This document shows, piece after piece, positions 7,052 through 7,322 of a stretch of DNA of 7,411 nucleotides. A program made the position numbers and the translations under genes. How positions within the stretch are numbered: position 1 is the stretch's first letter; each line of letters opens with the position of its first letter. The notes beneath the pieces are model-generated. The model saw only the letters and a list, made by a program, of their open reading frames with translations, was not told the origin of the DNA and searched no databases. The stretch is from Octopus sinensis (lineage: Eukaryota): the NCBI RefSeq assembly GCF_006345805.1, contig NW_021828478.1:1-7411 (forward strand), written 5' to 3'.

Positions 7052-7322
7052 CAATGGGTGAATGAATTATCCTATGTTTACCGTTACCATGGAAAATTCA
7101 ATGAACCTTTACCAGGGTAGCAAATTCACGCCAAAAACACGATTGAAGCGACCTATCCAAAGGAGAAACTCCGGGTTAATGTGCAATAATTTGTGTAGTA
7201 TAAGTAAATAAATGGAGTTGAACGAAGATGTTAATAAATTCTTTTACTTCGAAACATATGTCAAAAGTAAAGAACTTTTATTAACATCTTCGTTCAACTC
7301 CATTTAATTTATTTATTTATTC
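7052..7322 (-). mobile_element. Second, diverged member of the 944-1305 PLE-like family, with palindromic end
   Basis: 7054-7155 is an inverted homologue of 1201-1296 (AATGAATTATC, GGGTAGCAAA blocks); 7251-7305 parallels 1091-1148; 30-bp perfect inverted repeat 7209-7238/7277-7306; (TA)n on both sides. Confidence 0.72.

Follow-up and report, generated by a model that had tools for sequence, protein, structure and literature searches.

Elements A and B of the window

The window analysed here is a 7,411-nt stretch of the Octopus sinensis genome (contig NW_021828478.1, positions 1 to 7,411, forward strand). Its GC content varies from 11 to 48% per 300 nt, and it consists of arrays of the (TA)n, (TG)n and (CA)n type, for which TRF lists 44 rows, packed together with short interspersed repeats. 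Two of the inserts, element A (944–1300, plus strand) and element B (7052–7316, sense on the minus strand), each consist of an inverted stub, a sense copy and a tail, and both are inert remnants without an ORF. The (TA)n arrays that served as their targets were delimited by TRF at 434–945 (to the left of A), 1306–1470, 7035–7051 and 7323–7347. All four outer junctions of the two elements adjoin these arrays, with 0–6 nt of degenerate sequence between, and no target-site duplication was readable inside the (TA)n flanks. ARAGORN predicted no tRNA gene in the window and Rfam found no family above its gathering score there; the microRNA matches listed by Rfam were rejected as repeat or hairpin artefacts below threshold. 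Against Pfam, the two ORFs that overlap element A (of 45 listed) gave sub-threshold matches only (E = 0.15 and 0.06), and the latter match, to GIY-YIG, was rejected because it lies on the antisense strand.

The stub of element A (944–961, minus strand, 18 nt) is a 5′-truncated copy that ends at the short 3′ end of the element. It is the reverse complement of 1143–1160 (17/18 identical), possibly reaches 965 if one gap is allowed (20/22 identical), and appears in self-BLAST as a pairing of 1143–1168 with 961–936. The sense copy (962–1300, plus strand) comprises a pseudo-LTR remnant and the tail, and its homology to B covers about 1086–1298. The segment 962–1022, which has no second copy in the window, presumably also belongs to the element. 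An alternating-TA run inside the sense copy (1162–1168) marks the stub breakpoint at the short end and shares microhomology with the flanking (TA)n. The tail (1169–1300) is 132–140 nt long and contains a hairpin near 1188–1222 and a terminal stem-loop at 1262–1287; against shuffles, the terminal stem gave z = −2.77 (2/200) and the middle stem z = −2.36 (5/200). The first-pass annotation had placed this element at 944–1305. Its 18-nt stub stands, while its end is moved here to 1300 and its tail of about 145 nt is replaced by the length given above.

Element B shows the same arrangement in the opposite orientation. Its stub (7247–7316, plus strand, 70 nt) carries the 3′ half of a hammerhead, GAAACATATGTC (7251–7262, with a GUC triplet), and B keeps no other part of that motif. 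The sense copy including the tail runs from 7249 to 7052 on the minus strand and is homologous to the body and tail of A. Its short body (7199–7249) has TATA (7202–7199) at the short end and matches the stub in 48 of 54 columns, the inverted repeat spanning 7200–7316 in self-BLAST. At the inner junction, stub and sense copy overlap by 3 nt (7247–7249) and a 6-nt palindrome occupies 7248–7253; the stub holds 7250–7263, which is missing from the sense copy. The tail (7052–7198, minus strand) is 148 nt long with a terminal stem-loop at about 7100–7063. Taken alone, this terminal stem gave z = −1.55 (11/200 shuffles), and the same stem is present in the two-sequence fold with A; the middle hairpin of B had no support against shuffles (z = 0.61), and across the two tails compensatory changes were seen at 1 of 19 pairs, a count based on two sequences only. 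A stub of about 70 nt with the hammerhead 3′ half and its GUC had been recognised before, in an element extended to 7322. The stub homology ends at 7316, and the 6 degenerate nt that follow (7317–7322) are neither element nor clean (TA)n.

Because the whole of B folds into a long hairpin (z = −7.69, 0/200 shuffles) and has a weak Rfam match to MIR397 (38.7 bits), it might be taken for a MITE-like or microRNA-like hairpin whose match to A is incidental. However, the MIR397 score does not reach the gathering score (55), both arms of B are copies, of unequal extent, of A sequence, its loop is half a hammerhead and its tail is homologous to that of A. We therefore regard such an origin as hardly credible.

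Hammerhead ribozyme motifs

A hammerhead descriptor scan of both strands of the window returned two matches, one in element A and a degenerate one at 1892–1922. The match in A is a predicted minimal type-I hammerhead (1023–1108, plus strand), delimited by the descriptor scan and a constrained fold. Helix I pairs 1023–1028 with 1103–1108 (6 bp) and is followed by the core CUGAAGA (1029–1035). Helix II (1036–1090; 55 nt, 7-bp basal helix, −17.1 kcal/mol) is followed by GAAA, helix III is palindromic (ACAU/AUGU), and with the GUA triplet cleavage is predicted after 1102. The fold constrained to the hammerhead (−18.5 kcal/mol) and the unconstrained fold (−19.0 kcal/mol) are 0.5 kcal/mol apart, and the unconstrained fold of 1015–1120 is ordinary against shuffles (z = −1.49). 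Rfam gave no hammerhead match in A. The putative ribozyme matches the geometry of the minimal hammerheads of Penelope-like elements (PLEs) described in PMC4209133 and the 3–4 bp palindromic stem III of Hydra-clade rows (PMC8557442, file S2). Its helix II, with a nested hairpin, is unusually long in comparison with most of the Hydra rows in the accessible tables of PMC8557442.

The degenerate match belongs to a second hammerhead-like remnant (1872–1985, plus strand), in which a degenerate minimal motif spans 1889–1925. It ends about 63 nt before (TA)n and has a SINE-like copy directly upstream; at 1874–1944, Rfam gave only a weak HH9 match (19.9 bits against 52). This remnant is probably another PLE 3′ end. 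A further hammerhead-like motif with a variant core was seen by eye at about 6906–6941, within 6836–7034 (plus strand), and was not matched by the descriptor. The 3′ end of 6836–7034 and the tail of B use one (TA)n tract (7035–7051) in convergent orientation.

Homology and separate origin of the two elements

Homology was assessed by local alignment under two scoring schemes with 2000 dinucleotide shuffles each. In all five pairings the score was reached in 0/2000 shuffles under both schemes (z = 8.3–20.0): z was 17.0/12.0 for the two sense copies, 12.6/8.6 for the two tails (92/148 columns identical), 16.3/10.3 for A against the B stub, 8.5/8.3 for the A stub against its own sense copy and 20.0/10.1 for the arms of B against each other. 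The homology of A and B and their common layout of stub, sense copy and tail, as proposed in the first-pass annotation, are thus confirmed. The similarity it had drawn between 1091–1296 and 7054–7305 is significant as well, but it is made up of two alignments of opposite orientation instead of one: self-BLAST aligned A with the B stub on the same strand (1087–1148 against 7247–7305) and, in opposite orientation, with the body and tail of B. One core of 19 nt is present three times (1130–1148, plus; 7210–7228, minus; 7287–7305, plus), with 0.01 occurrences expected. A 20-nt core had three exact matches in bacterial contigs, which were dismissed as chance matches since no flanking homology extended beyond 20–28 nt.

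Each stub is closest to the sense copy of its own element. The A stub matches its own sense copy at 17/18 positions and B at 13/20, and the B stub matches its own sense copy at 38/41 and A at 32/47. The inverted-stub layout therefore formed twice, in separate insertions. Duplication of one ancestral insert was rejected, as each stub has the diagnostic bases of its own copy. Within A and B, self-BLAST revealed no part of the element repeated in direct orientation and hence no partial tandem or direct pseudo-LTR, as would be expected in such short truncated copies.

A third insert, element C (2190–2680, minus strand), has the same layout as A and B and an unrelated sequence. Flanked by (TA)n on both sides, it comprises an inverted arm (2570–2666), a sense arm (2392–2297) and a tail of about 101–107 nt, and its arms agree in 88 of 98 columns (z = 33/18). 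Element A had no homology to the inserts at 2186–2680, 6836–7034, 1872–1985 and 241–433 (z at most 0.4). The descriptor scan found no hammerhead in C, for which reason C is possibly a Naiad candidate. Three C motifs had no match in the published consensus files (PMC8557442 supplement, in the part accessible), where wrapped lines and divergence may hide matches.

Outer ends and inner junctions

Past the motif CTCCATTT, the A stub follows its sense copy for 12 nt, then shows one mismatch and next matches a 7-nt TA run. As this run is indistinguishable from the flank, the distance is up to 20 nt if TA microhomology is counted. The B stub continues for 10–11 nt past CTCCATTT into TATA, and 6 degenerate nt then precede (TA)n. 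The earlier observation that both stubs begin just beyond this motif therefore holds, and the "inversion start" named in it is better read as the short 3′ end of the element. The TA runs at the short ends of A and B align with each other. Alternating-TA runs of at least 4 nt occur twice in the 337 nt of the A sense copy, the other being loop III of the ribozyme, and once in the 197 nt of B; in both elements, the run at the stub end is the only one downstream of the ribozyme. The probability that a stub ends on such a run by chance is 0.05 and 0.036 (post hoc values for A and B, which are not independent), and that of two stub ends agreeing within 6 nt is 0.038–0.087, depending on the assumed range. 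The agreement is suggestive of a stub end that is fixed across the two copies. The C stub also ends near a TA run; C contains 13 runs and 28% of its positions lie near one (chance 0.28), so this position says little.

The long end follows the stem-loop common to both tails after 13 nt in A and after 11–12 nt in B. Counted from the ribozyme cleavage site, the short end is at 54–66 nt and the long end at about 198 nt, the two sites being about 140 nt apart. The inner junctions differ between the elements (about 962 in A, 7247–7249 in B), and neither has a (TA)n spacer.

These junctions bear on the idea that a short-ended and a long-ended insertion were placed head-to-head in one (TA)n tract, or that the arms were homogenised by gene conversion. 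The (TA)n tracts are crowded, as illustrated by the 7035–7051 tract that B has in common with another ribozyme-like remnant, and both end types would still represent fixed sites. Two insertions in one tract are difficult to reconcile with the lack of any TA spacer where stub and sense copy meet in A and B and, in C, with the position of the one 6-nt TA run at the junction, which lies inside the arm. The order is moreover head-to-head in all three layouts (A, B and C), and the arms are 93–98% identical over ungapped columns, whereas A and B differ in about 35% of columns. On these grounds we consider this alternative quite improbable.

Proposed mechanism of insertion

PLEs carry an inverted 5′-truncated copy at the 5′ end and a tail of 30–40 nt on one end (PMC8557442, PMC3846280). 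The features reported in the accessible parts of PMC3846280, PMC8557442 and PMC4209133 agree with the suggestion of the first-pass annotation that inverted partial copies and 3′ tails such as those of A and B are typical of PLE insertions. Penelope-like families are common in octopus (PMC13282606). In vitro, the purified protein of an anole PLE cleaves AT-rich DNA on both strands and extends both of them, and it initiates reverse transcription at two internal positions of the RNA, one at either limit of the tail (PMC11167929).

We consider it probable that A and B are independent, heavily 5′-truncated insertions from related subfamilies of one PLE (Hydra- or Neptune-like) that bears a hammerhead and targets (TA)n, and that they arose by two-site priming. 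A GIY-YIG endonuclease would cut both strands of the (TA)n target, as the flanks suggest here and as is known in vitro for another PLE. Each freed 3′ end would then prime its own cDNA on the element RNA; the ends are observed, and the priming is proposed by analogy with the anole PLE. The long priming site would follow closely on the terminal stem-loop, about 198 nt downstream of the cleavage site, and the short one would lie 54–66 nt downstream of it. Both cDNAs would stop early at variable points and be joined at their 3′ ends by microhomology, which amounts to 3 nt in B. The tail would thus be the stretch of RNA that separates the start sites; the outer ends would be fixed and the inner junction variable. 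As the cDNAs have sequence in common, they would require two copies of the RNA, either as two molecules or as two pseudo-LTRs in one transcript.

The main rival is self-priming, in which one cDNA or antisense transcript snaps back and copies itself up to a stop point. Palindromes at inverted junctions of rotifer Penelope elements were read in this way (PMC3846280), a 6-nt palindrome is located at the B junction, and the stubs of A and C are wholly contained within their sense copies. The B stub, however, extends further 5′ than its sense copy: as 7250–7263 is absent from the latter, the tail-side cDNA could not have templated this stub, which favours two cDNAs over a fold-back, except if sequence has since been lost from the middle of a long palindrome, an event that could produce a junction like that of B. 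A fold-back also leaves the common stub stop site of the two copies unexplained, and we regard it as unlikely.

Two-site priming accommodates a fixed start of the inversion, which the first-pass annotation had attributed to a second priming site. The attribution fits two separate copies and the two start sites described in PMC11167929, although the inner junction is variable. The idea of a second priming site is largely known from the latter work, and the inverted-copy layout has been published as well. Elements A and B may thus be seen as an ordinary example of PLE insertion, in agreement with the two-start-site result of the one PLE studied in vitro, and they differ from the literature in tail length and in stub ends that lie on a TA run.

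A related case is twin priming in L1, where two target ends prime two cDNAs that are joined via microhomology, resulting in a 5′ inversion. In L1, one RNA templates both cDNAs, mostly over different segments, and the position of the second site is variable, whereas in the model for A and B the cDNAs overlap and both start sites are fixed.

Comparison with known PLEs and retrozymes

Both A and B have the inverted 5′-truncated copy at the 5′ end and the homologous one-sided tail (2/2 for each feature). In the accessible parts of PMC8557442 and PMC3846280, endonuclease-bearing (EN+) PLEs (Penelope/Poseidon, Neptune and Naiad) resemble them in the 5′-truncated sense copy with an inverted copy, the one-sided tail, the pseudo-LTR ribozyme and the AT-rich or (TA)n targets. 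Their tails measure 30–40 nt, a typical but optional length, in contrast to 132–148 nt in A and B; unlike EN+ PLEs, which are defined by one ORF encoding a telomerase-like RT and a GIY-YIG endonuclease, A and B are 3′-end remnants only, with no ORF left and no readable target-site duplication. In the anole Poseidon element (PAc, Anolis carolinensis; PMC11167929), too, the tail lies between two fixed start sites on the RNA, both of them 3′ of the hammerhead; both target strands are primed, and a stem-loop is present near a start site. A and B differ from PAc, as far as it is described there, in the distance of about 140 nt between the sites and in the position of the short site, which coincides with a TA run and thus with sequence like that of the (TA)n target.

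The Hydra clade (PMC8557442, files S1, S2 and S7) resembles A in its (TA)n targeting, its universal hammerhead and its short palindromic stem III. The combination of a canonical hammerhead and (TA)n insertion is found in A, but it is not exclusive to Hydra, and a preference for microsatellites has been reported for Neptune and Naiad too (PMC8557442). Naiad lacks the canonical hammerhead, whereas A has a complete one. The other Hydra characters are RWK and DKT motifs, a CxCX5C linker and an endonuclease without CCHH (PMC8557442), all of them coding features. By eye, the listed Octopus Hydra ribozyme had no sequence match to A or B (PMC8557442, in the rows accessible). Seven window motifs also had no match in the published Naiad, Chlamys and Hydra consensuses (accessible part of the PMC8557442 supplement), where wrapped FASTA lines and divergence may hide matches; no named PLE family is accordingly linked to the elements.

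To place the two ends of A and B, we counted the 3′ ends of Hydra consensuses in the PMC8557442 tables, using the 24 of 27 families with a usable 3′ ribozyme row; two families without a row were left out, as was Penelope-18_HMa, for which the tables give a ribozyme at the 5′ end. The consensuses end 29–47 nt past the cleavage site in 10 families, 62–96 nt in four, 113–152 nt in nine and 354 nt in one. The ends of A and B (54–66 and about 198 nt) are further from the cleavage site than the Hydra ends at 29–47 or 113–152 nt, respectively. Longer tails may be latent in the published Hydra consensuses.

A last alternative concerns the donor RNA. Non-LTR retrozymes are, like A, short non-coding units with a type-I hammerhead (PMC7229834; 10.64898/2026.07.22.740005), and A and B might be a non-autonomous retrozyme, or some other short retroelement with a ribozyme (about 340 nt), moved by a machinery supplied in trans. 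The length of A (about 340 nt) is in the range given in PMC7229834, no ORF was seen in A or B, and animal retrozymes have been argued to come from PLE pseudo-LTRs (10.64898/2026.07.22.740005). Against this, A and B are single units without the tandem ribozyme array that defines retrozymes, the A ribozyme belongs to the minimal type and its helix II is very long, and the inverted stub and tail are marks of PLE insertion. We consider this alternative very improbable; the insertion would in any case be PLE-driven, so that it changes the donor RNA and not the two-site priming model.

Possible role of TA pairing in the choice of the short end

Microsatellite bias and inverted-repeat formation are listed as unexplained for PLEs in PMC8557442. 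As a tentative idea, which we hold to be less probable than its negation, the short 3′ end of (TA)n-targeting PLEs could be set by an internal UA run that pairs with the nicked (TA)n, and the long end by a terminal stem-loop 50–150 nt further on. The stub ends of A and B, each on the sole TA run downstream of the ribozyme, hint at such pairing. If this is true, TA pairing would be a second, homology-guided mode of priming, unlike the non-homologous initiation of the anole element, and would explain both the microsatellite targeting and the long tails. Among the six novel Hydra consensuses of PMC8557442, inspected by eye, all three long-ended ones (87, 96 and 114 nt) have an internal TA run of at least 5 nt at +22 to +44 from the cleavage site, and two of the three short-ended ones end on a TA run. 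The rough iid chance for the three long-ended cases is 0.0005–0.0034, a post hoc value for a range (+22 to +44) picked after looking. Against the idea, the TA at consensus ends may be target sequence, alignments drift into TA flanks, element C carries little information, and no assessable homology is seen at the long ends. Neither the TA-pairing model nor the A/B family was found in the literature searched, with most subscription journals and Repbase reports outside reach. If TA pairing picks the short end and tails reach four times the described length, genome alignments alone could test (TA)n priming, and the consensus boundaries of many invertebrate PLE families would also be fixed.

Other inserts of the window

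A SINE-like family is represented by five copies according to a 24-nt motif. Its copies and fragments (74–100% identical) lie at 1469–1871, 3354–3479, 4170–4413, 4463–4589, 5231–5662, 5696–5921 and 5964–6018, and we take the family to resemble octopus SINEs. A second, GC-richer and apparently SINE-like repeat occupies 2960–3215 and probably belongs to the minus strand. Two direct copies (3821–4167 and 4703–5020; 84% identical) represent an unclassified repeat 320–350 nt or so in length. The segment 241–433, a unique stretch of 190 nt that ends at (TA)n and has neither a hammerhead nor similarity to A, is possibly another element end. Finally, the inserts at 6388–6760 and 7348–7390 start with ACTAG followed by a short GC-rich hairpin-like motif, directly after (TA)n, and are presumably typical of Helentron/HINE-type non-autonomous elements.
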